A program made the position numbers and the translations under genes. From assembly GCA_028286585.1 (NCBI GenBank), contig JAQBRI010000011.1, forward strand, positions 1,648 through 65,647: 64,000 nt of DNA, given 5' to 3'. Shown piece by piece: positions 13,369-57,624 of this stretch (its first letter is position 1; each line of letters starts with the position of its first letter). The notes beneath the pieces were generated by a model. That model ran no database searches, was not told where the DNA came from, and saw nothing but the letters and a program-made list of their open reading frames with translations. Source of the DNA: Candidatus Kaiserbacteria bacterium. GTDB taxonomy: Bacteria; Patescibacteriota; Minisyncoccia; Phycocordibacterales; UBA2100.

Positions 13369-15294
13369 ATGAAAATCCTGTATACGTATGCAAGAGCCCT
13401 CATTGTACCGGTTGGACTAGTAATTATATTTGTAATTCAAAACCTGATATTCAATAATTGGGTCCATCTTGATCCAAATCCAGAAAATGCAATTTTTGTC
13501 TTTGATTGCGCAATCTTTGGCGTTTTGCTTTATATGCCAGGAATCCTCTGTAGGGGAATATGGCGCTTTATCTATTATCTTTGCGTCTCAGTTATCTTAT
13601 CTGCAATATTTATTTCCCAATACCTTTATTTTTCATTTTATGGAGGTTTTTTACAAGCTTCGGCATTGCGATATGCCAATCAGCTGGGCGATGAGACAAG
13701 CACACTGATTAAATTGGTACATCCCAGTATTGTCGTCTTTCTGCTTGGAGTCCTTGGTGTTGCAATCGCATATTGGATCACACGCTCGAATCATCTGCAT
13801 GTTCCCGAACTCGGGCGGAGACAAAAACTAAACGTAGCTGTAGTCTTACTATGCACCATGATTGGTTGGTACGGTTTTTTTGTACCGAGTGATGTACAGG
13901 GACTTCGTAAATTTACCGATCCACAGCTTGTACTGCATGATCTGAATAGTTTTTCATACTCGCCAAACCAAACCGTACGTGAAATTGGAATATCCAGTTT
14001 TTATCTCGAAGATCTTATCGGTACGTTTATGAGAAAAACGGTTATTTCAAGTGTCGAAAAGGATTTTGTAAAAAATTGGTTCAATGTTAAGCCGCCAATA
14101 ACCAAGGAAGCAAATTTTGGCCTTTTGAAAGGAGATAATTTTATTATTATTCAAGTGGAATCCCTCGAAGCATCGGTAATAGGGCAGACAATAGGTGGTG
14201 AGGAAATTACACCCAATTTGAACAAACTTGCTCATGATGGCCTCTACTTCAAAAACTACTATACGCAGGTTGGTCCAGGGAACACAGCGGACGCAGAGTT
14301 TGTTACTCTCAATTCCTTATATCCACTTACCAATACTGTGGCATTTATTGACTATGCCAATAACTCTTATGCTGCGCTGCCAAACTTGTTGGTTCAAAAT
14401 GGCTACAGCACGTTTGCACTCCATGGAGATATCGCGAACTTTTGGAATCGCACAAACATTTACCCCGGCTTGGGCTATCAAACGTCCATCAATAAAGCAG
14501 ACTTTACGGTTAAGGAAACTGACTTTGAATCCCTAAGCGATGATGATTTTCTGCAACAAAGTGCCGTAAAGATGCAAACTTTTACTCAGCCGTTTATGGC
14601 GACGGTTATTACCTTGAGCTCGCATACTCCATTTCAAATTCCTCAACGTTTTCAAACTCTCAACATTCCAGACGATGCCAATCTTACTGATACGCAAAAG
14701 GATTATTTACAAAGCGTCCACTACGCCGACTCTGCACTGGGAATGTTTATTCAGTCTCTTAAATCCGAAGGATTATATGATAATTCGCTCATTGCGATTT
14801 ATGGGGATCATGGCGGCTCAACTGGCATTAGTGAAGTAGTGGGCACATCCACGTATCACACCGTTACTCCGCTTCTTAATAGTCATGTTCCATTGATACT
14901 TCTCTCGCCCAAACTTAATACACTCAAACACGGCACAATCGATACACCTGGAAGCCACTTGGATTTGTACCCGACCGTTGCCAATTTACTTGGAATTCTG
15001 CCCCCAAATACAGTTCTCGGACAAGATCTGCTTAATACAAAAACACCAGTCATTACACACCGAGATCCATACTCAGAAATTATTCTCTCCATCATGACAC
15101 CTTCTTTGTTGTATGAAAGTAGTGCAAGCGGAATATTTGAAGAGGGAACATGCGAAACGTTGCCGCAAAACACAATGCTTCCAATTGCCGACTGTAGCGC
15201 TTTATATGAACAGCAGTCAACTACGATACGGGTATCCGATGATTTGGTTCGGGGTAATCTTCTCAATTTGGTTTTGAAAAATTCTTCTCAATAA
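13369..15294 (+). CDS. LTA synthase family protein (sulfatase-like phosphoglycerol transferase)
   Basis: N-terminal 5-TM domain plus an extracytoplasmic sulfatase/alkaline-phosphatase-like domain (DNFIIIQVESLE ... HTPF ... YGDHG). Confidence 0.8.
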   Translation: MKILYTYARALIVPVGLVIIFVIQNLIFNNWVHLDPNPENAIFVFDCAIFGVLLYMPGILCRGIWRFIYYLCVSVILSAIFISQYLYFSFYGGFLQASALRYANQLGDETSTLIKLVHPSIVVFLLGVLGVAIAYWITRSNHLHVPELGRRQKLNVAVVLLCTMIGWYGFFVPSDVQGLRKFTDPQLVLHDLNSFSYSPNQTVREIGISSFYLEDLIGTFMRKTVISSVEKDFVKNWFNVKPPITKEANFGLLKGDNFIIIQVESLEASVIGQTIGGEEITPNLNKLAHDGLYFKNYYTQVGPGNTADAEFVTLNSLYPLTNTVAFIDYANNSYAALPNLLVQNGYSTFALHGDIANFWNRTNIYPGLGYQTSINKADFTVKETDFESLSDDDFLQQSAVKMQTFTQPFMATVITLSSHTPFQIPQRFQTLNIPDDANLTDTQKDYLQSVHYADSALGMFIQSLKSEGLYDNSLIAIYGDHGGSTGISEVVGTSTYHTVTPLLNSHVPLILLSPKLNTLKHGTIDTPGSHLDLYPTVANLLGILPPNTVLGQDLLNTKTPVITHRDPYSEIILSIMTPSLLYESSASGIFEEGTCETLPQNTMLPIADCSALYEQQSTTIRVSDDLVRGNLLNLVLKNSSQ

Positions 15295-15825: not shown

Positions 15826-17490
15826 ATGAACAATTTAAAAAGCAGTAGAATCGCAGTTCTTGGAGGCATTATGCTTGCAATGCTTCTCTCCGCACTCGAC
15901 CAAACCATCGTTTCAACAGCGATGCCCAAGATCGTAGGGGAGTTAAATGGCCTTTCGCACCTTACCTGGGTCTTTACGGCATATTTGCTCGCCTCGGCAA
16001 TTACAGTGCCAATTTACGGTAAATTATCGGATATTTTTGGACGTCGGGGATTTTATCTCCTTGGTATCGCAATATTTCTCGTTGGATCGATACTCTCAGG
16101 TCTTGCACCTAGTATGTTTTGGCTGATTGTATTTCGTGGTCTGCAGGGTATTGGAGGCGGGGCAATTATGGTCAACTCGCTTGCAATCATTGGCGATATT
16201 TTTCCTCCGGAGGAACGCGGCAAATTCCAAGGACTCATCGGAGGCGTATTTGGTATGGCATCAATTGCAGGACCGCTTCTTGGCGGTTTTATAACAGATA
16301 ATCTTTCATGGCGCTGGATTTTCTTCATTAATATTCCTCTTGGAATCTTGGCTATGGTTGTCTTGTCGATTGTCCTTCCAAAAATTGCTGTTGATACTCG
16401 AGATCGATCTATCGACTATATTGGCGCTACATTTCTTGCAACAACGTTAATACCATTTCTTTTGGCACTTGTTTGGGGAGGTAGTCAGTACGCCTGGGGC
16501 TCCGAAACAATAATCTTACTGCTCGCGGGATCAGTCGTATCTTTGTTTTTGTTTATCTGGGCAGAATGGCGCGCAAAAGAACCAATTCTTTCATTGGATT
16601 TATTCAAAAACAGGGTATTTCTTGTCTCCATCATTGCAACGTTTATTACCGGTATGGGAATGTTTGGTGCCATCATTTACATTCCTGTATTTGCGCAAGG
16701 AGTCATTGGCATCTCAGCAACAAGTTCTGGATTTATATTGACTCCGCTTATGATCGGCCTTATCACCGCATCTATTATTTCGGGACAGATTATATCTCGT
16801 ACCGGAAAATACAAAATTCTTGCAGTGACAGGCATGATCATAACGACCATTGGTATGTATTGGTTCTCACTCATTCGTCTTGATACTAGTAACTTTATGC
16901 TTGGTGTTCGCATGGTAGTACTTGGTTTTGGACTTGGAACGACAATGCCTATCTTTACACTGGTTGTACAGAGCGCATTTGGCCGGGAAAAAATTGGAGA
17001 AGTAACCGCAGGTATACAGCTCTTTCGATCGATTGGAGGAACCGTGGGTACGGCAATCTTTGGTGGCGTTATGAACTCACAATTGGCAAGCCGACTTGCG
17101 AGCATTGGTAGTGATCCTTTTGTGCAGACCATGAAGCAGCTTGATCCAAACACCGCCATTGCCCATATCGACAGTAATACAGTGCAGGCGATACTCAATC
17201 CAGCTACACAATCGTCTATAACATCACTCTTCTTAAAGGCACCAGCACCGATGCAGGCACAACTCAGCCAAAGTTTCGAGAACTTTGTTGGGATTGTAAA
17301 AATAGCCTTTACCCAATCTGTCGACCAGGTGTATATCGTGAGTACGCTTCTGATGGCAACAGCGCTCATCGTAGTATGCTTCTTGCCACAAATTTCACTT
17401 AAACGAAGTGAGCGTTCTACGCTTGAAGAAATTGGCGTTGAGCTTGAGGATGAACTTGGTCATGATCGCGTAAATACTTTCGCTCACTAG
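15826..17490 (+). CDS. MFS transporter, DHA2 family efflux pump
   Basis: 14-TM layout. [11 protein letters not shown] motif. Confidence 0.85.
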
Positions 17491-18390: not shown

Positions 18391-19938
18391 TTATACTCCG
18401 CTATTGAGAGAAGCTCTGGTAAGTGGTCCAACAGAACCAACGGCGGATATTCCGTGCGCAGTCTGATAATTCATTACTGCAGATTCTGTAAGAGGACCGA
18501 AGTATCCGGTAATTGGTCCGCTATACATGTTAAGTGTAGTAAGTCGTTGCTGTAATTGTGTGACGTCAGAGCTGGTATCACCGACAGTGAGATTTGTGCT
18601 GAAGGTAAATTGTGCAGCCATCGCTGCAGCCAATTGTGCCTGAAGCTGCGCAAGTTTCGCAAGCAGATCACTTAGTGTTGGTGCAATGTTCGAGCCAACG
18701 ACTATGCTCGTCTGTGTGCTTGCAGAGTGTCCCAATGAATCGGTGGCCGAAATGGTGATGGTGTGCGTACCAACATCATTTGAGCCCGGAGTCCAGCTCA
18801 GCAAACCTACCGAGTTTATGTTGGCATTTGTAAGACTGTTACCTGTCAGTGCATCGCTAACAGTGTATGTAGGATTTGTAAATCCATTTGCTGTAGTCTG
18901 CAATGATACAGGACTGCCGACAACAATCGTACCGCCTGGAGGAGATACAGCACCTACCGAAAGAGATGTTCCGGTATTTGATGTTTGGCCAACGGTAACG
19001 TTCACCTGCGTATTTGCAGAGTGACCACTTGTATCAGTTGCGTAGACTGTGAGCAAGTGTGTTCCAACCTGCGTGGAATCAGGTGTCCAAGTAAAATATC
19101 CTGACGAATTTATGTTGGAGCTATTTACAGAACTTGGAGCTGAGCCATTAAACGAATCACTTACGGTATACGTAGGATTTGTGAATCCCGCTGGGGCTGC
19201 ATTAAATGTAAATGATGAATACGGCGCTACAATCATCGAACTAGGGGTTACTGACGAGAGAGAAAGATTCGCGGACATAACAGGAATTGAGACACTCACC
19301 GTACCTGTTTTCCCAGTTGAATCATTTACAACAAGAGTAAGATTGTGAGTACCTACATCAGCAGTAGATGGAGTCCATGAGAAGTTTCCACTCGACGTTA
19401 TATTGTTATTGGTAATACTTGTGCCCAGTGCGCTGTCACTAATACTGAACAGTGGATTACTAAAACCTTGCGCATTGATGCTAAAAGTTACCGGATTGCC
19501 CACTGTTGCACCTGTCGCAGGAGATATATTTTGAAGTGTTACATTTGAACTTCCGACCGTAAGCACTTGTGATGCCGATGCTGTATTGCCATAACTATCA
19601 TTTGCAGTAATGGTAATCGTGTGAGCTCCTACATCATTTGCAGACGGCGTCCAACTAAAGGCGCCAGATGAATTGATATTTGAACTATTGATCGATGATC
19701 CACTAAAAGAGTCTGTCACTGAGTATGACGGGTTAGTAAATCCAGAGCCGAGCGCACCAAACGTAACAGTCTGTCCTTGATTAATTTGACTGCTTGGTGA
19801 CACCGGCTGGATGGTCACAGAACCACTTGCATACGTATACGTAAGCGGTGCTACTACAATCCCAATTCCAATTGCTGCGCCTGCAATTCTCCGCATTAGT
19901 TCACTATTTTTCAATTGCGCATATGTGCTTGTTTTCAT
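18391..19938 (-). CDS. surface protein: five tandem Ig-like repeats plus C-terminal peptidoglycan-binding domain
   Basis: Signal anchor. Five ~80-aa repeats of pattern Y.VSDS..G......NINSSG.FSWTP...DVGTH..T. The C-terminus matches PG_binding_1 (LTVGDTSSDVTQLQQRL ... GYFGPLTESAVMNYQTAHGI). Confidence 0.7.
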   Translation of the reverse strand: MKTSTYAQLKNSELMRRIAGAAIGIGIVVAPLTYTYASGSVTIQPVSPSSQINQGQTVTFGALGSGFTNPSYSVTDSFSGSSINSSNINSSGAFSWTPSANDVGAHTITITANDSYGNTASASQVLTVGSSNVTLQNISPATGATVGNPVTFSINAQGFSNPLFSISDSALGTSITNNNITSSGNFSWTPSTADVGTHNLTLVVNDSTGKTGTVSVSIPVMSANLSLSSVTPSSMIVAPYSSFTFNAAPAGFTNPTYTVSDSFNGSAPSSVNSSNINSSGYFTWTPDSTQVGTHLLTVYATDTSGHSANTQVNVTVGQTSNTGTSLSVGAVSPPGGTIVVGSPVSLQTTANGFTNPTYTVSDALTGNSLTNANINSVGLLSWTPGSNDVGTHTITISATDSLGHSASTQTSIVVGSNIAPTLSDLLAKLAQLQAQLAAAMAAQFTFSTNLTVGDTSSDVTQLQQRLTTLNMYSGPITGYFGPLTESAVMNYQTAHGISAVGSVGPLTRASLNSGV

Positions 19939-38523: not shown

Positions 38524-41403
38524 TTATTTAATTACAAAATTCACCAACTTATTAGGTACTACGATCACGCGGATGATGTTTTGATCTTTAAGGCGGTCGG
38601 AGGCGATGGTGCGAGCGATCTTTTCAAGAGTTTCATTATCGGTGTCGGTGGCTGCGCGGAACTGCTCGCGCATTTTCCCGTTGATAGATACCATAATAGT
38701 TACTTCGGACACTGCCAAAAATTTCTTATCGGCCTTTGGCCACTTTTCGAGGTGTATCGACTTTTTGTTACCAAGCACACTCCACATCTCCTCAGTTATA
38801 TGCGGAGCAAACGGTGCCAATATTCGTAGGAATGTTGCCAATTGCTTCTCCCCTACCCCCTTTTTTTCTACCTCGTTTACAAAAACCATCATTGCGGAAA
38901 CTGCGGTATTAAACTTCATTTCCTCTATATCCCCACCCACCTTTTGAATACACACATGCAATGCGTGGTTAACATCTGCTACTTCTTTCTTTTGTACAAT
39001 ATCCTGCAGTCGCCAAATACGATCGAGAAAGCGTTTTACGCCCACCATGTTGTTGGTGTTCCAGGCAATCGATTCGCCAAATGGACCCATAAACATTTCA
39101 TAGACTCGCAGCGTATCAGCGCCAACTGCTTTTATTATTTCGTCAGGGCTCAGCGCATTGCCTTTTGACTTACTCATCTTTGCCCCTCCTTCGGCCAAAA
39201 TAAGCCCATGGCTCGTCCGTTTTATATAAGGCTCGCTTGTGGGTACTAGTTTAAGATCGTAGAGGAATTTGTGCCAAAAGCGGCTGTACAGCAAGTGGAG
39301 TGTTGTGTGCTCCATACCTCCGTTGTACCAGTCAACTGGAGTCCATTTCTTTAAAAGTGTTTTGTCGGCAAGAGCTTTTTTGTTCTTTGGATCAACATAT
39401 CGCAAAAAGTACCATGATGAACCTGCCCAGTTTGGCATCGTGTCAGTCTCGCGGCGTGCCCAGTTTTTGCACTGAGGACATTTTACCCGCAGCCACTTTT
39501 CCATAGTCGAAAGCGGAGATTCTCCGTCGTCTGTTGGTTCGTACTTTTTGACGTTGGGAAGTTTGACCGGCAAATCCTTTTCTGGCACAGGAATCCATCC
39601 AAGTGTCTCTGGATTCTTAAGGCCACAGTATTCACAGCGGATCATTGGAATTGGTTCGCCCCAGTATCGCTGACGAGAGAAAACCCAATCACGAAGTTTG
39701 AACGTTGTTATCATCTTGCCTCCCACCTCATCAACAATCTTTTTCATTGCTTCGGCACTTTCCATTCGATTATAAGTACTCGAATTAGACAGTGTGCCGT
39801 AGTCAGTATAAATTCCCCCGTTACCACTCAAGACTTTGAGAAAGTACTGGTGCGTATCTGCAGTCAAGAATTTAGCGAGCTCTGCTTTTGTAAGCCACAT
39901 GACCTCGTGCATTGCTTCCTCTTTTGTATCTACCGAAACTCGCTCGTCGTTTTCAAGCTCAAGATACACCATGTGTGCATGAGAATTGCGATTGGTCTTT
40001 TTTGGAACGTGATAAAACTTGCCGTGTACAATTCCATAATCTTTTACAAAGCGTGCATTCTTGTATCCTACCTCTTCGAGCAGTTCTGCTTTTGCTGCAG
40101 TCTCTGGTGTCTGTCCCTTCTCGATACCTCCGGTAATAAAAGTGCCCCATGCAACCTGTTTCCACTTAAGACCAATGTATTTGTCTTCTGACCAATGTTT
40201 TACGACTGCAATAATAGCTTCACGATGATCAAATGGTTCACCCTCCCGAATCTTGCCTGGCTCTGTTGTCTGACTGTAGGTTGGTTCGATCACCTGCCTT
40301 ATCGGCAAATCAAACTTTTTTGCAAACTCATTGTCGCGCTGATCGTGCGCTGGTACTGCCATAATAGCGCCAGTACCGTAGTGTGCGAGTACATAGTCTG
40401 CAATATAGACTGGAATCTTTTCTTTATTCGCTGGGTTGATAGCCCAAATGCCTTCAAGGCGTACACCTGTCTTTTCTTTGCCTTCGGCAGTACGTTCGAT
40501 TTCGGGTTTGTTTTTTGCGGCTTTTGCATACGCTCGCACTGCATCTTCATTATTCAAAAGTCCCTTGTGCGTAAGTGAAAGTGTTACAAACAAATGATCT
40601 GGCGCGAGTACCAGGTATGTCGCTCCAAACAAAGTGTCTGGGCGTGTGGTAAAGACTGCAAGAGAACCATCTTGTGCCTTGGGTTGATTATCAAATGTTA
40701 CGGCAAAATTTATTTCGGCACCCTCACTTTTACCTATCCAGTTGCGCTGCTGTGTTTTGATTTTTTCCAGATATTCGACACCATCGAGATCGTTGTACAA
40801 ACGTTCTGCATACTTGGTAATTGCAAGCATCCATTGCTCTTTCTCACGTTTTTCGACAACACTTCCGCAACGTTCACAGCATCCGTCGACGACTTCTTCG
40901 TTTGCGAGCCCAATCTTATCGACTGGGCACCAGTTAATAGGCATCTTACTTTTGTATGCAAGACCTTTTTTGTACATCTGCAAAAAGATCCACTGCGTCC
41001 ATTTGTAGTATTCGGGATCAGTGGTATTGATCTCGCGTGACCAGTCAAACGAAAATCCTATTCGCTTGAGTTGTTTGCGAAAGGTATCGGTATTTTGTTT
41101 TGTAACTTTTGCCGGATGAATACCAGTTTTGATGGCGTAGTTCTCGGTTGGAAGTCCAAAGGCGTCCCATCCTATTGGATACAAAACGTCGTACCCTTCG
41201 GCACGACGCTTGTGGGAAATAATATCCATTGCAGTGTTAGATCGCACGTGTCCAACATGGAGTCCGCTACCAGATGGGTACGGGAACTCGATAAGGGCAT
41301 AGAACTTCTTTTTGCCTGCCACTTTTGGCGCTTGCCAGATTTTGGACTTTTCCCACTTTGCCTGCCACTTTTTTTCGATTTTGTTGTGGTCGTACTTGCT
41401 CAT
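38524..41403 (-). CDS. leuS: leucine--tRNA ligase with NUDIX-fold insertion
   Basis: HVGHVRSNTAMD (HIGH), the TTRPDT and AVPAHDQRD editing-domain motifs, KMSKS. About 135 extra residues between IRQVIEP and FKLRDWVFSRQRYWG contain a Nudix-like fold (WGTFITGGIEKGQTPETAAKAELLEEVGY). The ATG at 41403 (MSKYDHNKIEKKWQ) is preferred to the GTG at 41412. Confidence 0.9.
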   Translation of the reverse strand: MSKYDHNKIEKKWQAKWEKSKIWQAPKVAGKKKFYALIEFPYPSGSGLHVGHVRSNTAMDIISHKRRAEGYDVLYPIGWDAFGLPTENYAIKTGIHPAKVTKQNTDTFRKQLKRIGFSFDWSREINTTDPEYYKWTQWIFLQMYKKGLAYKSKMPINWCPVDKIGLANEEVVDGCCERCGSVVEKREKEQWMLAITKYAERLYNDLDGVEYLEKIKTQQRNWIGKSEGAEINFAVTFDNQPKAQDGSLAVFTTRPDTLFGATYLVLAPDHLFVTLSLTHKGLLNNEDAVRAYAKAAKNKPEIERTAEGKEKTGVRLEGIWAINPANKEKIPVYIADYVLAHYGTGAIMAVPAHDQRDNEFAKKFDLPIRQVIEPTYSQTTEPGKIREGEPFDHREAIIAVVKHWSEDKYIGLKWKQVAWGTFITGGIEKGQTPETAAKAELLEEVGYKNARFVKDYGIVHGKFYHVPKKTNRNSHAHMVYLELENDERVSVDTKEEAMHEVMWLTKAELAKFLTADTHQYFLKVLSGNGGIYTDYGTLSNSSTYNRMESAEAMKKIVDEVGGKMITTFKLRDWVFSRQRYWGEPIPMIRCEYCGLKNPETLGWIPVPEKDLPVKLPNVKKYEPTDDGESPLSTMEKWLRVKCPQCKNWARRETDTMPNWAGSSWYFLRYVDPKNKKALADKTLLKKWTPVDWYNGGMEHTTLHLLYSRFWHKFLYDLKLVPTSEPYIKRTSHGLILAEGGAKMSKSKGNALSPDEIIKAVGADTLRVYEMFMGPFGESIAWNTNNMVGVKRFLDRIWRLQDIVQKKEVADVNHALHVCIQKVGGDIEEMKFNTAVSAMMVFVNEVEKKGVGEKQLATFLRILAPFAPHITEEMWSVLGNKKSIHLEKWPKADKKFLAVSEVTIMVSINGKMREQFRAATDTDNETLEKIARTIASDRLKDQNIIRVIVVPNKLVNFVIK

Positions 41404-41446
41404 ATTGAACACTCTATCATGTGGAATATGATCAAGCTATATTGTG

Positions 41447-43185: not shown

Positions 43186-44289
43186 CTAACCGTGTTTGAA
43201 CTCGGTCACATCGCCGTCCTGGAAAATATATTCTTTTCCCTCACTACGCACCAATCCTTTTTCGCGAGCCTTGCTCCACGACCCTTCCGTAAGTAGTTGA
43301 TCCCATTGAATTACATCAGCACGAATGAATTTGTTCATAAAGTCTGTGTGAATTGCACCAGCCGCCTGAGGAGCGGTTGAATTGCGCGGAATAGTCCATG
43401 CGCGAGTCTCATCTTCGCCTGTTGTAAAATACGAAATAAGATCCAGAAGTGCGTATCCACCTTTGATAAGTGCATCAAGTCCGTCGTCGGACACTCCCAA
43501 TTCGTTTCGAAAATCTCGCTTCTCGTCTTCGTGCACGTCTGCAAGTTCGTTTTCGACTCCGGCATCGATGATTACATATGATGCGTTTCGCTCTTCAATA
43601 AATCGCTGGAGGTCCGCCCATCGAGCACCTCTTTCTGCATCAACATTCACAACGCCGCTTTTACGGTTAAGAACATAGAGGATTGGCTTCATCGTAAGTA
43701 AGTGAAGCGACTTAATCGAAAGCAACTCCTCATCGTCGAGTACAACCGTGCGCGCTGCTTTTCCGTTTTGAAGTGTGGGAAGAATTTTCTTAATGGTCTC
43801 TCGTTCGAGCACTGCAGCTTTATCTGCTCCACTGCGAGCATCTCGTTCGACACGCTCAAGCCGCTTGGTTGTACTATCAAGATCGGCAAGCACAAGCTCG
43901 AGGTCGATTACTTCGATGTCGCGGATTGGATCAACAGTTCCGGCAACATGGTGCACGTCTTCGTCATCAAACATACGCACGACTTCGGCGATAGCATCGA
44001 CTTCGCGAATATGATTTAAAAATTGATTACCCAACCCTTCGCCTTGTGATGCTCCTTGCACCAAGCCTGCAATATCAACAAATTCAACAATAGCTGGAGT
44101 GGTCTTTTTTGACTGTGACATTTCCGAAAGCCGTGTGAGGCGAATGTCCGGTACCGCAACTACACCGACCGATGGATCGATAGTACAAAATGGATAATTT
44201 TCTGCGGGAACGCCTTTGCGAGTAAGCGCATTAAAGAGCGTCGATTTACCGACGTTGGGAAGTCCTACAATACCGATAGAAAGTGACAT
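43186..44289 (-). CDS. ychF: redox-regulated ATPase YchF (Obg-family GTPase)
   Basis: G1 GIVGLPNVGKSTLFNALT. C-terminal TGS-like EGKEYIFQDGDVTEFKHG. ATG at 44289. Confidence 0.9.
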   Translation of the reverse strand: MSLSIGIVGLPNVGKSTLFNALTRKGVPAENYPFCTIDPSVGVVAVPDIRLTRLSEMSQSKKTTPAIVEFVDIAGLVQGASQGEGLGNQFLNHIREVDAIAEVVRMFDDEDVHHVAGTVDPIRDIEVIDLELVLADLDSTTKRLERVERDARSGADKAAVLERETIKKILPTLQNGKAARTVVLDDEELLSIKSLHLLTMKPILYVLNRKSGVVNVDAERGARWADLQRFIEERNASYVIIDAGVENELADVHEDEKRDFRNELGVSDDGLDALIKGGYALLDLISYFTTGEDETRAWTIPRNSTAPQAAGAIHTDFMNKFIRADVIQWDQLLTEGSWSKAREKGLVRSEGKEYIFQDGDVTEFKHG

Positions 44290-44333
44290 GGGGGCAATTA
44301 TAGCCGAAATTTGGGCAATTTTCAACGCTCCAC

Positions 44334-46058
44334 CTAGTCAACATATATATTGACCGACTTCTGATCAATTATGTTTCCGCTCGTGTCTTTGCTTACAAAA
44401 GTGATTTTGTACGGTCCGCTTCCCTTCCAGTTCCAGTTTGTAAGATCAGTCAAGAATTCCTTATGTGGGTAATCAGTTTGATTATCGCTCATAAGTACCA
44501 AACCACCTCCATCTACCTGCCAGTACATCGTGTATTGTGATAGCGTAAAACCCGAAAGCATTGCCTTAAATGGCTGCGTACCGTGTACGTGTGATCCATC
44601 ACTTGGCCACCAAATGTTAGTTTGACCATTTCCTGTTGTGGGTGGAGGTGTCGAGGTTGTTCCGGCAGTAACCGAGAATGTTTGTGCAGAATTGAGCCAG
44701 TAATAGTTTTTGGTCCATCCGCCAGCAAACACGCCTATTGCTATGCGATACTGTCCGGTTTGCGATGGAGTCCAGTGCACAGTGTTTGTATACGATGCAC
44801 TCGACTGAATTGAAACGTTTTCGATTGCCTTTTGGAAAACTCTGGTGTTGTTGGAATCGTATATTTCGATATCAACTATTCCATTTGAGAGATTTCCAGA
44901 AATATCTGTAACGGTTACGCCAAGAGACATATCCTGTCCCACAGTGCCGTTTTGTGCCGTTGCACTAGCCGAGAACGATGGATCACCCGCTGGTGTAACA
45001 GGAGCAGGAGGCGTGCCAAAATATTTAGTCATAATAGATTCTGCAGTTTTATTCTGCGGAGTATATTCATTTGAACCCGGGCCGCCAGCTGAGGCGTTTG
45101 ATTTCCAATCCCAAAGATACACTCCTTGCATGTACGAATAGTTATTCCAATAGCTAAACAGTGCTTCGTAAGCATTTGCCTGTGTTTGCATGCTTATGGG
45201 CGAAGAACGATTGTAATCCCATGGATTATTATATGAGCCTTCGATGCTGCGATACCCCACTTCGGTAAATATGATTGGCTTTCCTACCTGAGCTGCAAAA
45301 CCTTTAATATCATTTGCATTCCATGCATTCCAAGCGTTTGAAAGTGATTGCACAGAATTATCAGGCGCATTCAAGGAGTAATACGTTGAGAGTCCCACAA
45401 AATCGAGTGAAGACCAAAATCCGATGTACTTCTTTTCATTCGTAAACTGGTTGTCACTGTTATCGTTGGAGTTTGCACTATATGAAAGTTTGCCCGAATA
45501 CACTTTTCGCACATTACCGATCATCGTAACCCAATGCTGTGTATTAGTTGAATTCATTTGAGATGACGCCATGCTGACGAGCTCTGTTCCAAGTATCATA
45601 TATTCAGCTTGATGTGCCTGTGCAATTTGCGCTGTATGCACAAGCATTGCACCGTAATTGTTAAACCATGTATCACGGTCTGACGGATTTATATTTGCAC
45701 GCCATGCATTGTCATATGTTTCGATATGCACCTTGAGGGACACTTGCAGTCCTATTGAATGCGCATAGTCTATTCCTGCGGCAAGCGAAGCGTCGGTTGG
45801 AGTATTCCAGCCCACGGCCACGTCGGTACTATAGATATTAGTTTGATAAAACGGAATGACGAGTGCGACAGAATTTGCACCGGTATTTCGCAGTTCCTGC
45901 AGTGACTGCTTAAACGTAGCACTTGCAAAGTCTGTCGAAGACTGCGGCACAATAGAAGCACCGCGCTGCCAGCTAGAAATTGCGGCGTGCGTCGAAAATG
46001 GTACGAGAGTAGTGGCCGCAAAAAGAAACGTAATGAGAAGTGCGGATGTTATTTTCAT
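44334..46058 (-). CDS. secreted TIM-barrel glycoside-hydrolase-like protein with C-terminal beta-sandwich modules
   Basis: Signal peptide MKITSALLITFLFAATTLVPFSTHA. Candidate catalytic Glu segments YMILGTELV and PIIFTEVGY (clan GH-A-like; family not assignable). C-terminal ~95-aa WWPSDG module homologous to two modules in the adjacent GH6. Confidence 0.55.
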   Translation of the reverse strand: MKITSALLITFLFAATTLVPFSTHAAISSWQRGASIVPQSSTDFASATFKQSLQELRNTGANSVALVIPFYQTNIYSTDVAVGWNTPTDASLAAGIDYAHSIGLQVSLKVHIETYDNAWRANINPSDRDTWFNNYGAMLVHTAQIAQAHQAEYMILGTELVSMASSQMNSTNTQHWVTMIGNVRKVYSGKLSYSANSNDNSDNQFTNEKKYIGFWSSLDFVGLSTYYSLNAPDNSVQSLSNAWNAWNANDIKGFAAQVGKPIIFTEVGYRSIEGSYNNPWDYNRSSPISMQTQANAYEALFSYWNNYSYMQGVYLWDWKSNASAGGPGSNEYTPQNKTAESIMTKYFGTPPAPVTPAGDPSFSASATAQNGTVGQDMSLGVTVTDISGNLSNGIVDIEIYDSNNTRVFQKAIENVSIQSSASYTNTVHWTPSQTGQYRIAIGVFAGGWTKNYYWLNSAQTFSVTAGTTSTPPPTTGNGQTNIWWPSDGSHVHGTQPFKAMLSGFTLSQYTMYWQVDGGGLVLMSDNQTDYPHKEFLTDLTNWNWKGSGPYKITFVSKDTSGNIIDQKSVNIYVD

Positions 46059-46153
46059 ATTTGATTTCAAATGGCACGTCCATGCTAATAAAAGGCACGC
46101 ATTAAACGTCCCTTTAATATTAAGAGGACGTCATCATTTCTATTTTCTTACAA

Positions 46154-48031
46154 TTAGTGGCTGTTGCGTACCAACTCAAGCGCACCATCAGACCACCATT
46201 GCCCAGCACCTGGTCCACCATTACAGTTTCCGTCGGACTCACCAGGAGTCTTGATCCACAAGAATGCGTCAATCAGTGCGTTTCCTGTCGCCGTAGTAGG
46301 TTTTGCACCTATTGCGCGGCCGCTTGGATTACACCAGTTGTTTCCTGCATCAGGTCCATTTCCATTTCTTGACGTGTCTACTACGAAATGTTTTCCATTT
46401 ATTTTTTGCGACAAACTGTTTCCGTAGGAAATCGAATCACTCGAAGACTGGTAGTTGGAAATGTTAAGAGAAAAACCATCAGCGCGGCCAATGTTAGCCT
46501 TTTGTAATTCACTTGCCATAACACTCGTATCAATCCACCCTGAGTGGCCGGCATCGATATATACAGAGGTTTGTCCGCTCACTTTAAAGGTGTTCACTGC
46601 ATCCGACAAAAGAGAAAGTCGTGTCGCTTGATCAGCTGGCGAAAGACAGCCAATGTTTGCAAGAGCGTCAGGTTCGAGAATCACAACTGCCTTGGTGTTT
46701 CCAATAGCAGCAGCAAATGATCCGATCCATGAGCGATAGCCATCAGGGGAATTAATACCTCCTGCAGAATAGCCACCACAGTCACGACCGGGTATGTTGT
46801 ACGCCACAAATACGGGCACGGTATTACTCTTTTGTGCAGCATCTGTCACCGCATGCACCGCTTTGTATACGTCTGTGTTCCAGTTACCAATCCAGGTAGC
46901 TGTTGCCTGTGAAGCGAGCACATTCATAAGAAGAGCGTCATTTGGACGGCTGTATTTCCAAGCACTCGCTTGTGACGCTGCGCCCGATTGCGGATTTACA
47001 TAAAAATTGAGTCCCGCGAGATTTCCAGTAACTGCGTTGATAACGGTTGGAAGTACTGGCGTTTGTAATGCAGCAACAGCAGCTGAAACGGTACCAACTT
47101 GAATGGTAACTTTTTGCGTTGCAATAATATTTCCCGAAGAATTTTTTGCGGTAAATGTAAGTACGTACTGGCCCGATGTATTCCAATTCCAACTAGAAAG
47201 GTCAACCAATGATTCTTTATAAGTTCCTTCTGATGTACTTGTGGTATTAAGTGGAACGAGCCCGCCCGCGTCGACACTCCAATACATTGTGTACGCGTCC
47301 GTATTCATATTTTGAACAACTGCCTTGAACGGTTGTATTCCTGTGACATGTGCACCGTCAGTTGGCCACCAAACATTGATAGATGCCGGCGCTGCAGGAA
47401 CTATAATTGCTGGCGCAACATTTATAACTGGCGTTGGGGTCGTAATAGTTGGCACTGGCGTCGACGCAACTATTGGAGCTGGTACTGGTGTTGGAGTAGG
47501 TGCAGGAGTCGGCGTCGGAGTTGTAATTACCGGAGTTGGTATTGGTGCTGGAGTAGGCGTAGGAACTGGTGCAGGAGCAACAGACACAGGCACAGAAGCG
47601 GCCGCGTCGTTATACAAACTAATTGAGCGTTGCGCAAAAGTTGTTCCGTTACTTTTTGCTACAAAATTTACCATGTATGGTCCCTTGCCTTTCCAGGTCC
47701 AGTTGGTCAAATCAACACTCGACTCTTTGTGAGGATAGCCGTCGTAGTTTGATGGAAGAAGATTGAGCTGACCGTTGTCGACTTGCCAATACATATCGTA
47801 CTGATCGACCGCCATGTTGTCAGCGACAACCTTAAAAGGCTGTACTCCTGTGACGTGCGCACTGTCTGTCGGCCACCATACACCAACACTTGCATTAGAG
47901 GTGTCAGCGGACACCCCTGTAGATGATATTAAAAATAGTGATGCGACAATGAGCGCACTACTGAGTACTTTGCTTATTTTTGATATTGAGTCCCAAGTAT
48001 ATATGGGAATTTTTTCGCACTGATTTTGCAT
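46154..48031 (-). CDS. glycoside hydrolase family 6 (cellulase/cellobiohydrolase-like), two N-terminal WWPTDG modules and PT linker
   Basis: GH6 motifs VFVAYNIPGRDCGG (catalytic Asp), VILEPDALANI, YIDAGHSGWI, FVVDTSRNGNG, NWCNPSGRAIG, DAFLWIKTPGESDGNC. Signal peptide from the ATG at 48031. Pro/Thr linker at residues about 153-225. Confidence 0.8.
   Translation of the reverse strand: MQNQCEKIPIYTWDSISKISKVLSSALIVASLFLISSTGVSADTSNASVGVWWPTDSAHVTGVQPFKVVADNMAVDQYDMYWQVDNGQLNLLPSNYDGYPHKESSVDLTNWTWKGKGPYMVNFVAKSNGTTFAQRSISLYNDAAASVPVSVAPAPVPTPTPAPIPTPVITTPTPTPAPTPTPVPAPIVASTPVPTITTPTPVINVAPAIIVPAAPASINVWWPTDGAHVTGIQPFKAVVQNMNTDAYTMYWSVDAGGLVPLNTTSTSEGTYKESLVDLSSWNWNTSGQYVLTFTAKNSSGNIIATQKVTIQVGTVSAAVAALQTPVLPTVINAVTGNLAGLNFYVNPQSGAASQASAWKYSRPNDALLMNVLASQATATWIGNWNTDVYKAVHAVTDAAQKSNTVPVFVAYNIPGRDCGGYSAGGINSPDGYRSWIGSFAAAIGNTKAVVILEPDALANIGCLSPADQATRLSLLSDAVNTFKVSGQTSVYIDAGHSGWIDTSVMASELQKANIGRADGFSLNISNYQSSSDSISYGNSLSQKINGKHFVVDTSRNGNGPDAGNNWCNPSGRAIGAKPTTATGNALIDAFLWIKTPGESDGNCNGGPGAGQWWSDGALELVRNSH
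47389..47608 (-). repeat. coding low-complexity repeat (Pro/Thr/Val linker)
   Basis: Reiterated ggtgttgg/ggagtagg/ggcgtcgg units that encode PTPTPAP ... TPTPVPAP. Confidence 0.6.
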
Positions 48032-48110
48032 GATTATATGCCCCTGTGAAAAAGTATACCCCAAATGTCCTCTTGACCGCTAGTCTTTTTTGTCGTTGTG
48101 TCAGCCTTAT

Positions 48111-49394
48111 TTACAAAGAAAATGATCCACACACCGACTCTGTAGCGGCATCAAGCAGCAAATATTTTTTGAGAGCTGCTTCAACTTCGCGCTTCGTAAG
48201 TTTGAGTATTCGCTGCGGAAATTGATCAAGATACGCGATAGGTTTACCTTGCACAACGATCTCATGAGCTGTGCGAGCAAGACTCATGGAATCAACACAT
48301 GCGACTATGGATTGTGCTACAAACATTGCGCGATGCTTTTTAAACTCCTCGCTGTCGATACCCCTTGTACGTATTTTTTTGATTTGCGAATGAATTGCTG
48401 CACGCCCTTTTTCCAAAAGCTGCGGTGCAAAGGTTGCCCATATTGTTATGTATCCATCTGCAATAGAAAATCCGCTTGGATATGCATATATTCCGTAGGT
48501 TAATCCCTGTTTTTCGCGGATTTCCTTCATAAGGCGCCCGGTAAATCCGCTTCTGTTTCCCAAAATCTGAAGTCCCAAGACAAGTGCAGGATAGTCGGCG
48601 TGATCTGAAGTAATTCCTGTGGTTATACCAAGCATGTAGTCGACACTCGACTTGTCCATAATCGGAGTTTGAATATATTCCTTGTGATGATCGACTGCTT
48701 TTTCATATATTGCCGGCTTTATCGCAGTTGAGGCGAGTTTACTACAATGCTTTTCGATGATTGTCGAGATAGGTACCATCTGCACGTCACCTACAACGGA
48801 TACTATCAATGATTCTCGAGAAATGGCATGTGTATGATATTGAACTAGTGTATCTCGCGTGAGCGTTTGAATTGCCTGCCGTGCTTCATCGGTTGAATCA
48901 CTGCGCAATGGATGGCCGGGAGAATAGAGTGTTCGAGACAAGTGAATTGCCGCCTGTGCTCGTGTGTCTTGACTCTCGAGTGCAAGGTCTGATTCAGTAC
49001 GTCCGCAAAGCGTAACAAATTCTTTCTCTTCAAATGTCGACACGGTGAGACATTCGGCGATGAGTGCAAAGAGTGCATCCAGGTAATCGGTATGTACTCG
49101 TGCTACAAATTGTAGTCGATTTGCTGTCGCACTGAATGAAAGCGATGCTCCTATAGTGTCTAATGCAACTTGGAGTTCCTGCTTGGTGTGTTTTTTTGTA
49201 CCTTCAAGCAACATTGCTGCGTGCAGTTCTGCGAGTGTGTCGCCCATTGATTGCGAAGCGAACGATCGTGCCAGCTGCGATCCACCAGCAATACTTCCAA
49301 CGATTGATACATAGCCCACGAGCGGCATCTTTGAAGTAAGGAGTGTACCTCCCCACTTGTATGACATACGTTTTATGCGGGAAGTGTATTTCAT
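48111..49394 (-). CDS. M16 family peptidase, non-catalytic subunit
   Basis: Insulinase-like fold without HxxEH. 4-nt overlap with the upstream catalytic M16 gene. Confidence 0.75.
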   Translation of the reverse strand: MKYTSRIKRMSYKWGGTLLTSKMPLVGYVSIVGSIAGGSQLARSFASQSMGDTLAELHAAMLLEGTKKHTKQELQVALDTIGASLSFSATANRLQFVARVHTDYLDALFALIAECLTVSTFEEKEFVTLCGRTESDLALESQDTRAQAAIHLSRTLYSPGHPLRSDSTDEARQAIQTLTRDTLVQYHTHAISRESLIVSVVGDVQMVPISTIIEKHCSKLASTAIKPAIYEKAVDHHKEYIQTPIMDKSSVDYMLGITTGITSDHADYPALVLGLQILGNRSGFTGRLMKEIREKQGLTYGIYAYPSGFSIADGYITIWATFAPQLLEKGRAAIHSQIKKIRTRGIDSEEFKKHRAMFVAQSIVACVDSMSLARTAHEIVVQGKPIAYLDQFPQRILKLTKREVEAALKKYLLLDAATESVCGSFSL

Positions 49395-53084: not shown

Positions 53085-53954
53085 CTATATGCCACAGAGG
53101 CGATTGGCCTCTTCGATGACTTGTGGGATTTTTGACTGTTTGACTCCATTTTCTTGCAGCAAATGAGGAACCTGGATGCTTTTACAAAGGACAATCTTTT
53201 GCTCAAGCAGTCGACGCTTTTCACCCTCGGAAAGCGTTGTAAGGCAGGTTAGTGGATGCACCTTTGCCTCTTCTATCATACTGAGAAGTCCGCGCGTACG
53301 GGGATAGTTCCAGCCGATTAGCTGCAGGTTTGAACATTGCGCATACCGAATCGCATTACGTGTAAAGCGCGTATTGGTTACGAGCCAGCCTTCGTCAACG
53401 CGCATCGATTGCTGTGGCGCAGCCTTGAGGTCGTCGTAACGGGCTTTTACATACAGTGCATCCTTGACGTCGGTTTTGCCGCTTGGATCATTATGAAATT
53501 TTGCTTCGATTCCAACACGTTTGCCCGCCTTTTCTGCAAGGACATCAACTTCGTGCGACACACAGCGACCCATCATCATGACGCCGGTTTGTGTATGCCA
53601 GCCTTCTGCCTTGAGCACTTCGGCCAAAAACCGTTCGAACGGAAACCCCGACGGACCAAGCGCAAAGACCGCACGCTTCATTGAGTAGCGCGCTGCTATC
53701 GGGGTTTCTTCATGCTCCTGCAAAAGCTGAAAGGCATGACGATAGATATCTTCTGTCATTATGTTGGGATGCAGCTCATGCATGATATGAGAGACAATTC
53801 GTGCCCGAGTAGTTGATGATGCACCCGCGTGTGCAAGCGAGTGTTCCAGCTTTACCGCATCAAACGCTTCGCGTTCGCCATCGGCTTTTGTTATCAACAT
53901 TTTTGCCTGCTGCATTGATGCAATTGTAACATCATAAAAATACAATCGATGCAA
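53085..53954 (-). CDS. ATP-cone domain + Mrr-like restriction endonuclease domain protein
   Basis: N-terminal ATP-cone (MLITKADGEREAFDAVKLEHSL). C-terminal PD-(D/E)xK Mrr_cat-like core (GKRVGIEAKFHNDPSGKTDVKDALYVKARYDDL). The true start may be at M14 or M19. Confidence 0.55.
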   Translation of the reverse strand: MHRLYFYDVTIASMQQAKMLITKADGEREAFDAVKLEHSLAHAGASSTTRARIVSHIMHELHPNIMTEDIYRHAFQLLQEHEETPIAARYSMKRAVFALGPSGFPFERFLAEVLKAEGWHTQTGVMMMGRCVSHEVDVLAEKAGKRVGIEAKFHNDPSGKTDVKDALYVKARYDDLKAAPQQSMRVDEGWLVTNTRFTRNAIRYAQCSNLQLIGWNYPRTRGLLSMIEEAKVHPLTCLTTLSEGEKRRLLEQKIVLCKSIQVPHLLQENGVKQSKIPQVIEEANRLCGI

Positions 53955-56121: not shown

Positions 56122-57624
56122 TTACATTGGAAGATTTATTGGTGGCTCCGCCTTTTTTGCCGCAATGCGTTGTATACCAGGAGTCTTAATGCTACTGCTT
56201 GGAAAATGAAAAATCGTTGCCAAGGCTTCGGTCGTCATTATACGATTATCAATTTCCCAAGGCGGATAAAATGAGCTTCTCCGCTGATAGGCATCGAAGA
56301 AACGACGGCTTCGCTCTATTTTGACACGTCCTCCTATATCTTGCCAGGGGTAATCAAAATCAAGACCATTCGTTGGACGCAGTTTATTAAGGTGAGCCGA
56401 ATCAAATACTCGGTATATTTCTCGAAAGCTCGAAATAAGCTGACCGTTAAATTGGCCATATCGTTCGTCGCCAAAAAACACTCCGCGTATGGAGGTTTGG
56501 AAATGCGTTTTTGATTTATGCCGCTCCAAGTGCTTCATTCTATCTTGCTGTTCTGTTGTAAGACGCGCGGTTGAGGATTCTTTGGTATTATCGTCGGGAT
56601 ATTTTGGGTTGACCATTGATTCAATCTTGATCTGTCTTATTTCCTCATCAATCTGTGCTGGCCAGTTACGACCCGTACGTATAAGCGCTCCCTCAGCGGC
56701 CTCAGCACGAATCATTATTTGAATCCACATTTGTTCGTGGGATTTGGTTGTGCCCATTAGCTCTAAGACTTGCGCAAGCGGATCAACTTTGAATTCCTCT
56801 TTGGGATCTTTGTCGAGCTCAAAATCGATATAACTCTTAAGCTGATAGGTGTCCTTATAATGATGTGCGGAACTGTCAGGCCTATTGTACTGGTATTCAA
56901 TATAGTACAGACGGTGATATTCTGAATTATATTCGAACTTTTTTGCATAGTCTTCGACTTCGTGAATTTCTATCTCTGGAAACTGTGCATAAAATGCTGC
57001 CTCGATCAACGACCTAAATCGCCCAGCACCCCATACATAAAAATGTATATTTCCTCCGATACTTACCATTTCGAGAGAAAACCAGGTACGCACAGAGCCG
57101 CGCCAAAAACGAGCACCGTAGGTTGTCTCGCTTCCTGCATGATACAAAGAGGTCAAGACCATTTCCATGGCACGCGGAGATTTTGTAATTTCGCGTGGTA
57201 TCTTTATTTCGAGCAATATAAAACCCTGTGCCGATATATACAGCTCTCGAACATAATGCACCCATACGAACATGGCAACTACCGCGAGCGTCAGCGGCAG
57301 CCAAATAGGCGCCAATCCAACAATCCAAGTTACAGCAAAAACAAAAAAATGAGGAGTAACAGCAGCAAATGCCAATATCAAACCAAAAAAAGTTATGCCC
57401 AAGACTAGCCCTCGGGAAATGTTCCATCCATTGATACTCCACTCCTGTCCTCCTATTTTGAGTTCACCAAACACAAATTTGTGATACCAGGATGGATTCT
57501 TTTTTGTATGATTAAACATTTTAAAAAGAATAATAAAAGGAAATAATACTATGATGAGTAGTATCTTGAGAAATTCTATAAGAAACGAGGGCTGCGGAGG
57601 TTGTGCATGTTCTTCATCTGCCAT
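56122..57624 (-). CDS. hypothetical membrane protein with large cytoplasmic domain
   Basis: 500-aa protein, four N-terminal TM helices, no recognised motif. 2-nt spacing to mltG suggests co-transcription. Confidence 0.45.
   Translation of the reverse strand: MADEEHAQPPQPSFLIEFLKILLIIVLFPFIILFKMFNHTKKNPSWYHKFVFGELKIGGQEWSINGWNISRGLVLGITFFGLILAFAAVTPHFFVFAVTWIVGLAPIWLPLTLAVVAMFVWVHYVRELYISAQGFILLEIKIPREITKSPRAMEMVLTSLYHAGSETTYGARFWRGSVRTWFSLEMVSIGGNIHFYVWGAGRFRSLIEAAFYAQFPEIEIHEVEDYAKKFEYNSEYHRLYYIEYQYNRPDSSAHHYKDTYQLKSYIDFELDKDPKEEFKVDPLAQVLELMGTTKSHEQMWIQIMIRAEAAEGALIRTGRNWPAQIDEEIRQIKIESMVNPKYPDDNTKESSTARLTTEQQDRMKHLERHKSKTHFQTSIRGVFFGDERYGQFNGQLISSFREIYRVFDSAHLNKLRPTNGLDFDYPWQDIGGRVKIERSRRFFDAYQRRSSFYPPWEIDNRIMTTEALATIFHFPSSSIKTPGIQRIAAKKAEPPINLPM

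Follow-up and report, generated by a model that had tools for sequence, protein, structure and literature searches.

Two adjoining open reading frames (ORFs) on the minus strand, 46154–48064 and 44334–46070, are the subject of this report. They lie on a 66-kb contig of a Candidatus Kaiserbacteria metagenome-assembled genome (MAG; Patescibacteria, or candidate phyla radiation, CPR), of which we analysed a stretch of 64,000 nt, referred to here as the window. Translation from the ATG starts at 48031 and 46058 gives products identical to MDB5188326.1 (625 aa) and MDB5188325.1 (574 aa), both of which were deposited as 'hypothetical protein'. We assign the two products to glycoside hydrolase (GH) families GH6 and GH113, describe the module of about 95 residues that they share, and report that orthologues of the GH6 gene in related genomes are usually found beside an operon for a cellulose-synthase-type glycosyltransferase (GT).

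Two modular glycoside hydrolases

The first gene is predicted to encode a secreted modular GH6 enzyme with a complete set of conserved aspartates. An earlier interpretation made from the letters of this DNA (the sequence-only reading) had recognized a GH6 cellulase here, and the match to PF01341 (226.4 bits, cutoff 27, E = 9.4e-67) bears this out; all of the motifs that it quoted are present and align with Mycobacterium tuberculosis Cel6 and Thermobifida fusca E2. In the numbering of the 625-residue protein the four conserved GH6 aspartates are Asp417 (RDC), Asp455 (EPD), Asp493 (DAGH) and Asp600 (ESDG), each aligned with its counterpart in 1uoz and 1tml. We take Asp455 of the EPD motif to be the catalytic acid position; the roles of the GH6 aspartates follow the T. 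fusca Cel6A work cited in PMC9040799.

The alignment to M. tuberculosis Cel6 (1uoz and 1up0, E = 1e-74) and to T. fusca E2 (1tml, E = 1e-61) is nearly gapless and spans 289 residues, and the matching chains are of endoglucanase size (286–315 aa). Cellobiohydrolases, with 360–430 aa, match the domain just in part and at E ≥ 1e-21. By this alignment the domain appears to be of the short, open-cleft endoglucanase type. It shares with M. tuberculosis Cel6/CelA1 and T. fusca Cel6A/E2 a length of about 290 aa and the RDC, EPD, DAGH and ESDG motifs, but differs in carrying two N-terminal immunoglobulin (Ig)-like modules instead of a carbohydrate-binding module (CBM) of family CBM2, in coming from a Patescibacteria genome and in being known from sequence. 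Both proteins begin with a predicted Sec signal peptide, in line with the sequence-only reading, which had called the pair secreted. In the GH6 protein this consists of an n-region with lysine, the hydrophobic core VLSSALIVASLFLISS and VSA ahead of the presumed cleavage site. The DNA encoding the linker between its two modules is internally repetitive (repeat family D2).

The second gene is predicted to encode a secreted GH113 enzyme of the β-mannanase type with both catalytic glutamates. It begins 95 nt past the GH6 stop codon and finishes 8 nt ahead of the ychF start. The match to PF22612 (181.5 bits, cutoff 27, E = 2.9e-53) refines the earlier call of a TIM-barrel hydrolase of clan GH-A. 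Glu159 in GTELV occupies the acid/base position and Glu266 in FTEVGY the nucleophile position, the two motifs aligning with GcEmv and fvEaG of 5ylh and 7dv7; both residues also align in the GH113 β-mannanase AaManA (3civ and 4cd6). The domain aligns to the mannanases 5ylh, 7dv7 and 4cd6 at E of about 1e-23, and because similarity to characterized members is this low, we infer mannan specificity with caution. These mannanases are thus distant relatives, and the window protein has in addition a C-terminal cassette of an Ig domain followed by the shared module.

In a predicted structure of this cassette the middle Ig domain is a confident β-sandwich (predicted local distance difference test score, pLDDT, above 90). 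It was considered as a fourth copy of the module and rejected, with E = 0.3 against the module. The linker between the Ig domain and the module is disordered in the model and the predicted template-modelling score is 0.55, for which reason a single rigid unit was also rejected; the model instead describes two independent domains on a flexible hinge. A fold search with the cassette returned just generic tandem-sandwich matches (transglutaminase barrels and RbmA) at template-modelling (TM) scores of about 0.3. The features of both genes are collected in Table 1.

Table 1. Features of the GH6 and GH113 genes, in window coordinates
Feature	Position	Strand	Remarks
GH6 gene	46154..48031	-	625 aa, MDB5188326.1; signal peptide, module A, Pro/Thr linker, module B, GH6
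Alternative in-frame TTG start of GH6 gene	48064	-	From the ORF
Predicted Sec signal peptide, GH6 protein aa 1–42	47906..48031	-	Inferred, read from sequence
Module copy A, 95 aa	47609..47893	-	GH6 protein; WWPTD...QPFK...MYWQVD...HKE...WTW; match to module hidden Markov model
Flexible linker rich in Pro, Thr and Ala, 76 aa	47381..47608	-	Between copies A and B; by composition (24 P, 14 T, 14 A)
Module copy B, 98 aa	47087..47380	-	GH6 protein
GH6 catalytic domain	46217..46963	-	Pfam envelope
GH113 gene	44334..46058	-	574 aa, MDB5188325.1; signal peptide, GH113, CARDB-like Ig domain, module C
Predicted Sec signal peptide, GH113 protein aa 1–25	45984..46058	-	Inferred, read from sequence; ends in STHA, followed by A
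GH113 catalytic (β/α)8 domain	45093..45935	-	Pfam PF22612
CARDB/filamin-like Ig domain	44667..44978	-	Sub-threshold Pfam CARDB, BatD and Filamin; model
Module copy C, 96 aa	44337..44624	-	Extreme C-terminus of GH113 protein; alignment, AlphaFold model

The shared module

The arrangement proposed in the sequence-only reading, with two copies of a module of about 95 residues and a Pro/Thr linker ahead of the GH6 domain and a third copy at the end of the neighbouring protein, is confirmed. The three copies are homologous and 47–50% identical as protein (BLASTP E = 3e-29 for A against B and 1e-35 for A against C, well past what chance would give). A further claim, that they are recognizably similar as DNA, holds for a core of about 70 nt encoding WWPTDG...QPFK, the sole part over which a DNA repeat can be detected (76% and 61% identity), but not for the module as a whole, where nucleotide identity among the three copies is 53–56%. 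Because this overall identity is so low, the copies are best regarded as the products of old duplications.

Searched against Pfam and NCBIfam, the three copies give no match above a model cutoff, and none to a CBM profile even at E ≤ 10. Copy B alone has weak sub-threshold matches to Ig-like Pfam families (InlK_D3, Bact_surface_Ig-like and PKD). When PDB sequences were searched with a profile of 30 module homologues none was significant, the best being antibody constant domains at E = 0.06. The AlphaFold2 model of copy C is an eight-strand β-sandwich with a pLDDT of 97.8, for which the best Foldseek match in the PDB is 6tn6, the Ig-like accessory domain of a Thermotoga petrophila GH5 mannanase (TM score 0.72, E = 1e-4, 16% identity). 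The second, 3tp4 (TM score 0.65), is called an engineered protein in its PDB record and is grouped with Cellulomonas fimi Man26A structures in PMC3966859. All other matches in the Foldseek list are immunoglobulins, and no CBM structure is among them. The structure prediction and CBM comparison that had been suggested for the module thus give an Ig-like sandwich. The proposal of an undescribed CBM stands insofar as no described family is matched; the fold is generic, however, and the module is also found on peptidoglycan hydrolases and proteases, and hence we put carbohydrate binding forward as a proposal only.

Conservation within the family is high. Over 110 copies, 27 of the 96 module positions are at least 85% conserved, among them five tryptophans: W5, W6, P7, G15, Q17, P18, F19, K20, A21, Y31, M33, W35, V37 and D38 in the first part, followed by G40, M45, P53, H54, K55, E56, W64, W66, G70, Y72, F76, A78 and G83. 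Copies average about 50% identity irrespective of the enzyme that bears them or of their position in it. Position-specific clades, as expected of an ancient split into A, B and C types, were looked for and not seen, since identities between groups (0.46–0.55) equal those within groups. The module is an Ig-like β-sandwich family that is absent from Pfam, NCBIfam and the PDB and is strongly constrained.

Carriers of the module

An exhaustive profile search gave 503 cluster representatives of the module family at E ≤ 1e-3, of which 375 remain at E ≤ 1e-10, mostly from Patescibacteria. Among GTDB species genomes we confirmed 131 module matches and kept 80 loci; all are from MAGs, and taxa are those of the record labels. 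About 61 of these loci are labelled Patescibacteria (Adler-, Kaiser-, Magasanik-, Taylor-, Doudna- and Peribacteria, Paceibacterota and 'Saccharibacteria'), 12 carry other labels, including Chloroflexia, Acidobacteriota and Gammaproteobacteria, and seven are labelled 'bacterium' only; GC content gave no check on the labels of the 12 non-CPR loci.

The architectures seen in the window are common ones. GH113-Ig-module occurs 38 times in the 80 loci, with three more examples that have two Ig domains, and GH6 is preceded by two modules in 19 cases, by one in 16 and by an Ig domain and a module in four. The sequence-only reading had considered such a locus unexpected in a small-genome organism, a view that is difficult to maintain, given that hundreds of Patescibacteria proteins have one or the other of its full-length architectures. 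In the 100 longer representatives the Pfam domains found include GH113 (37), GH6 (23), GH5 (5), GH8 (4), GH12 (2), GH44 (1) and GH26 (1), as well as Peptidase_M23 (6), CHAP (2), S8 (1) and a caspase (1), along with PA14 and fn3; CBM_2 is present in two of the 100 and CBM_6 in one. The module occurs in one to five tandem copies and is terminal and flanked by linkers, a placement like that of CBMs. GH5 carriers have five, two or one modules and GH12 carriers three or two; individual proteins have GH5 followed by five modules, GH12 by three and an S8 protease domain by two, or two modules ahead of GH8. The Ig-module cassette of the GH113 type is also present on M23 and CHAP peptidoglycan hydrolases.

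One carrier is a regulator. P0369, a ToxR-like protein with a winged helix and one transmembrane helix, has the module as its sole outside domain, and its gene is divergent from that of a GH5 cellulase with PA14 (L084:1-2475; a single example, on a 3-kb metagenome contig). The module in P0369 is predicted from this layout to serve as a sensor. RsgI-type anti-sigma sensors of cellulolytic clostridia expose extracellular CBM domains. P0369 resembles them as a membrane-spanning regulator that exposes a polysaccharide-enzyme module and is encoded beside a cellulase gene, but it is a ToxR/OmpR-type one-component protein rather than an anti-sigma factor.

Three further loci of the set may be mentioned here. 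Tandem GH113 paralogues occur in L041:4543-8155 and L050:3994-8170, where a GH113-Ig-module gene is followed by an overlapping GH113-module gene without the Ig domain. In L083:10001-21845, on a 774-kb Patescibacteria contig, a GH113-Ig-module gene stands alone directly upstream of an F-type ATP synthase operon, with ychF at the far end of the region. Six loci of the set contain genes for ATP-synthase subunits.

A cellulose-synthase-type operon beside GH6 orthologues

Clustering of the neighbours of 83 loci revealed three recurrent families, namely GH8, a GT2 glycosyltransferase and a PMT_2-type membrane glycosyltransferase (GT-C). At least one of these genes is present in 24 of the 36 GTDB loci with a GH6 orthologue and all three are present in 20. 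The GH6 loci with at least 4 kb of sequence downstream of GH6 number 27, and the synthase cluster is found in 20 of them; it is found in just one of the 33 loci that have GH113 only.

The linked GT2 passes the PF03552 cutoff and matches Rhodobacter BcsA at E = 9e-53, over the transmembrane and GT core, and Escherichia coli BcsA at E = 1.7e-49. In the related loci it shows the FDADH, TED and QQFRW motifs and is without a PilZ domain. The linked GH8 has an N-terminal membrane anchor and is related to CelA and BcsZ-type enzymes, whereas the PMT_2-type protein has no PDB relative. The usual gene order is GH8, GT2, PMT_2, converging on the GH6-module gene. At L024 a GH5-module enzyme stands in for the GH6-module enzyme right after the operon.

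The window GH6 nests among the synthase-linked GH6 proteins, and its nearest GTDB relatives (65–60% identity) are all linked, including one from another Kaiserbacteria MAG.

Instances of the operon are L039:8717-11501 and L060:8162-9664, with about 24 further loci (for example L012, L026, L034, L045 and L078). Genes for a small GT2 (DPM-synthase-like), for GtrA and for an extracytoplasmic function (ECF) sigma factor join it in some loci. A Doudnabacteria MAG has the module-module-GH6 gene in three pieces (L017:5743-7724; ORFs of 332, 152 and 192 aa), through either decay to a pseudogene or an assembly frameshift, and the synthase genes still adjoin it.

Genomic context and pairing of GH6 with GH113

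In the window the pair is part of a co-directional series that runs M16, M16, GH6, GH113, YchF, Ham1, a DUF5671 protein and leucyl-tRNA synthetase (LeuRS), with short intergenic gaps around the pair (79, 95 and 8 nt). A promoter and terminator scan of 44000–48400 found fewer sites than in shuffled sequence, or no more, and only the short gaps bear on co-transcription of GH6 and GH113. The GC content of the region, 44.5–46.4%, is like that of the remainder of the window, and base composition gives no sign of recent transfer. Near the pair there is no β-glucosidase, phosphorylase or sugar-uptake locus, all neighbours being housekeeping genes.

The sequence-only reading treated the two genes as a pair, and a conserved GH6-GH113 operon was considered; it was rejected. 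Both genes lie within ±6 kb in eight of the 80 loci, and in three of these they are adjacent on the same strand. The closest relative of the window GH6 (65% identity) is in the same synteny as in the window, the order at this locus (L081) being YceG, MnmA, Mrr, SAICAR synthetase, PD-(D/E)XK, M16, M16, GH6, YchF, DUF5671 and LeuRS. Comparison of L081:10001-13138 with window 44325–48031 shows that GH113 is missing between GH6 and ychF, which are separated there by a gap of 52 nt. Because L081 has the same synteny without GH113, the pairing is lineage-specific: GH113 was acquired on the way to the window genome, or else L081 has lost it. The closest relative of the window GH113 is part of a cluster in the order GT2/GtrA, GH8, GT2 (Cellulose_synt), PMT_2, GH6 and GH113.

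Interpretation of the locus

We consider it most likely, with a probability of about 0.5, that the enzymes of this GH6 family process a cellulose-like glycan of the cell's own making, on which the module holds them. What points this way is that a glucanase is kept beside a processive cellulose-synthase-type GT2, as are BcsZ and CslZ: the GH6 enzyme CslZ is kept next to cslA in Streptomyces (PMC9040799), and the GH8 enzyme BcsZ is a standard component of bcs operons (PMC8892547). The sequence-only reading had suggested host or prey glucans as the target, and the strongest contextual signal, the placement of GH6 orthologues beside the GH8, BcsA-like GT2 and PMT_2 genes, directs attention elsewhere. 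The window GH6 would be a member of a Patescibacteria-wide orthologous group whose usual place is beside this operon, with a BcsA-type synthase that lacks PilZ. Its substrate would be the β-1,4-glucan produced by the cell, which it may trim, release or remodel as BcsZ does in bcs operons and as has been proposed for CslZ. The modules would anchor the catalytic domains on the β-1,4-glycan surface, and tandem copies on flexible linkers could add avidity. In the lineage of the window the GH6 gene may have moved from the synthase operon into a set of housekeeping genes, with GH113 placed beside it. The weakest part of this proposal concerns GH113, which elsewhere is occasionally found in the synthase cluster and might have as its substrate a component of the coat that contains mannose, or else mannan from the environment.

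The likeness to CslZ, encoded beside cslA-glxA, and to BcsZ is thus one of a β-1,4-glucanase beside a processive cellulose-synthase-type GT2 in the related loci. There are also differences. The Patescibacteria operon has no GlxA, no BcsB or BcsC and no PilZ on the synthase, and has a PMT_2-type GT-C instead; the GH6 bears one or two binding-type modules, whereas CslZ has none; and a BcsA/CslA-type synthase next to GH6 is not found in this window but in 24 of the 36 orthologous loci.

Several observations weigh against processing of a self-made glycan. Homologues of GT2, GH8 and PMT_2 are present neither in the 64-kb window nor within ±10 kb at the locus of the syntenic relative, and because the operon is not in the window, the link to a synthase is made for this genome through orthology. 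Where GH6 and the operon do occur together they are usually convergent, and therefore not on one transcript, and GH113 is almost unlinked to the synthase, as the single case among the GH113-only loci indicates. Insoluble exogenous cellulose is the more typical substrate of enzymes with a double binding module and a long Pro/Thr linker. Further, the occurrence of the module on M23 and CHAP enzymes, on an S8 protease and on a caspase-like protein fits a general cell-surface anchor at least equally well. Finally, CslZ is without CBMs (PMC9040799) and BcsZ homologues are described as single-domain proteins (PMC8892547).

A strong rival, which we regard as possible although short of likely, is catabolic scavenging. 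Here a fermentative, biosynthetically poor cell would secrete the enzymes to free cello- and manno-oligosaccharides from the dead matter of plants, algae or microbes, and the module would be a plain substrate CBM. In agreement with this, binding module, Pro/Thr linker and catalytic domain are arranged as in canonical cellulases, and the module is associated mainly with cellulose- and mannan-active enzymes (GH5, 6, 8, 12, 26, 44 and 113). Cellulose and hemicellulose GHs have also been reported repeatedly from CPR MAGs (PMC9868632 and PMC10413278), the window has two transporters of the major facilitator superfamily (MFS), and the synthase operon is missing from it. Scavenging does not, however, lead one to expect the surroundings of the pair, which are purely housekeeping and without the β-glucosidase, phosphorylase or uptake genes noted above, nor would the strong linkage, over a broad phylogenetic range, of GH6 orthologues with the BcsA-like operon (20 of 27 loci) or the non-orthologous replacement by a GH5-module enzyme at L024 be expected of purely catabolic enzymes, and the module on peptidoglycan hydrolases and proteases would be left unexplained. 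The alternative that an epibiont attacks its host, its prey or a biofilm, cutting cellulose or mannan-type exopolysaccharide on the host or in the matrix with the module targeting the surface, seems improbable to us. We know of no identified host for Kaiserbacteria, and the synthase operon to which GH6 is linked is the cell's own, which points inward. Patescibacteria have been described as obligate epibionts (PMC13386854, citing Srinivas et al. 2024), and the module is also carried by lytic enzymes (M23 and CHAP) that act on the walls of other cells, but from their signal peptides and record labels (L011) these carriers seem to be largely non-CPR.

For the module itself, we think that in place of a CBM it probably serves to target its carriers by binding glycans. 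Its terminal placement, the linkers and multiplicity, the extreme conservation of aromatic and polar residues and the use as a sensor favour a role in binding a ligand, of which a glycan is the simplest choice, over that of an inert spacer. Modular cellulases with terminal CBM2 or CBM3 and Pro/Thr linkers, such as C. fimi CenA, have the same layout of signal peptide, binding module, linker and GH6 domain as the window protein, but the module of the latter, an eight-strand Ig-like sandwich, has no sequence match and no specific fold match to any CBM tested. It is also conceivable, if rather unlikely, that the module is a general address tag that keeps unrelated secreted enzymes on the surface of the producer, either by anchoring them to peptidoglycan or the envelope, as SLH, LysM and PG_binding domains do, or as a protein-docking unit. 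One module common to seven GH families, M23, CHAP, S8 and a caspase-like protein is a pattern typical of anchoring domains; the terminal position and variable copy number also count in favour, and the CBM2 and CBM6 domains of a few carriers would be redundant if the module already bound cellulose. Yet about 70% of the classified carriers are β-1,4-glycan hydrolases, the ToxR-like regulator with the module as sensor beside a cellulase gene is hard to explain by anchoring, and the organism already uses PG_binding_1 on another surface protein, described below. We find it very improbable that the module is an inert Ig-like spacer or stabilizer (X-module). The best structural analogues, the central Ig-like domain of the T. 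petrophila mannanase (6tn6) and the Ig-like 'X' domain of C. fimi Man26A, do come from mannan-active enzymes, according to PMC3966859 the function of the Thermotoga domain is unknown or may be that of a spacer or thermostabilizer, and no CBM appears among the fold matches. Those domains are internal spacers between catalytic domain and CBM, however, whereas the module is terminal, is repeated up to five times, shares just 14–16% identity with them and is far more conserved, including polar positions (H-K-E, D38, Q17 and K20); it is also the sole extracytoplasmic domain of a transmembrane regulator.

An extension of the self-glycan proposal, which we offer tentatively and as less than likely, is that in many Patescibacteria a minimal set of BcsA-type synthase without PilZ, GH8 and PMT_2 makes a cellulose-like glycan for the cell surface, and that the WWP module is a new CBM family that recognizes this polymer. 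The PMT_2 GT-C might decorate the polymer from a polyprenol-phosphate sugar, a suggestion prompted by the small GT2 and GtrA genes that join the cluster in some loci. The module would then tether remodelling enzymes (GH6, GH5 and GH113) to the coat and act as a sensor for membrane regulators, and a coat with controlled cutting could underlie attachment to host cells or release from them.

Among open-access papers and preprints we found only generic statements on GH6 or GH113 in CPR, on CBMs in Patescibacteria and on cellulose synthase in CPR/Patescibacteria, and no report of the module or of the BcsA-like operon in Patescibacteria; the 'cellulose degradation potential' of CPR is mentioned just generically (PMC9868632 and PMC10413278). 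The present analysis gives firm family assignments to two 'hypothetical proteins' and delineates an extracellular domain family, compact and strongly conserved, that present domain libraries miss. With about 500 clusters, this family marks secreted enzymes of Patescibacteria and of a few further phyla. If the module binds glycans, it would constitute a new CBM family with a ready set of natural fusion partners. The neighbourhood of GH6-module (or GH5-module) and BcsA-like genes suggests that ultrasmall bacteria with minimal genomes make and trim a cellulose-like envelope polymer, which bears on what Patescibacteria cells display at their surface and on how hosts are engaged. It also advises caution in carbon-cycling surveys, where GH6, GH8 and GH5 in CPR MAGs should not simply be counted as cellulose degradation potential.

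Other features of the window

An Rfam scan of the whole window gave no match. Beyond a sulfatase-family (LtaS-like) membrane enzyme (13369–15294) and the two MFS transporters (9844–11244 and 15826–17490; all three on the plus strand), one of which has a weak sugar-transporter match, no further carbohydrate-catabolism genes were seen among the window ORFs scanned. A surface protein of 515 aa (18391–19938, minus strand) combines Big_9 and He_PIG Ig domains with a C-terminal PG_binding_1 domain, from which it appears that the organism also uses a classical peptidoglycan-binding anchor.

On the minus strand at 56122–57624 lies a gene for a 500-aa protein without a Pfam match, and its counterpart at the same syntenic position in L081 (1-1453) is likewise without one. 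ATP-cone and Mrr_cat restriction-endonuclease domains are joined in one protein at 53085–53954 (minus strand), and this arrangement is kept in L081 (3664-4494). Finally, the LeuRS of the window (38524–41412, minus strand, 962 aa) has a NUDIX domain at residues 414–524, inserted after the editing domain and above the PF00293 cutoff with 42.9 bits. This is an unusual aminoacyl-tRNA synthetase fusion, and the same insertion, with a weak match, is present in the LeuRS of L081 (15060-17945, 961 aa).

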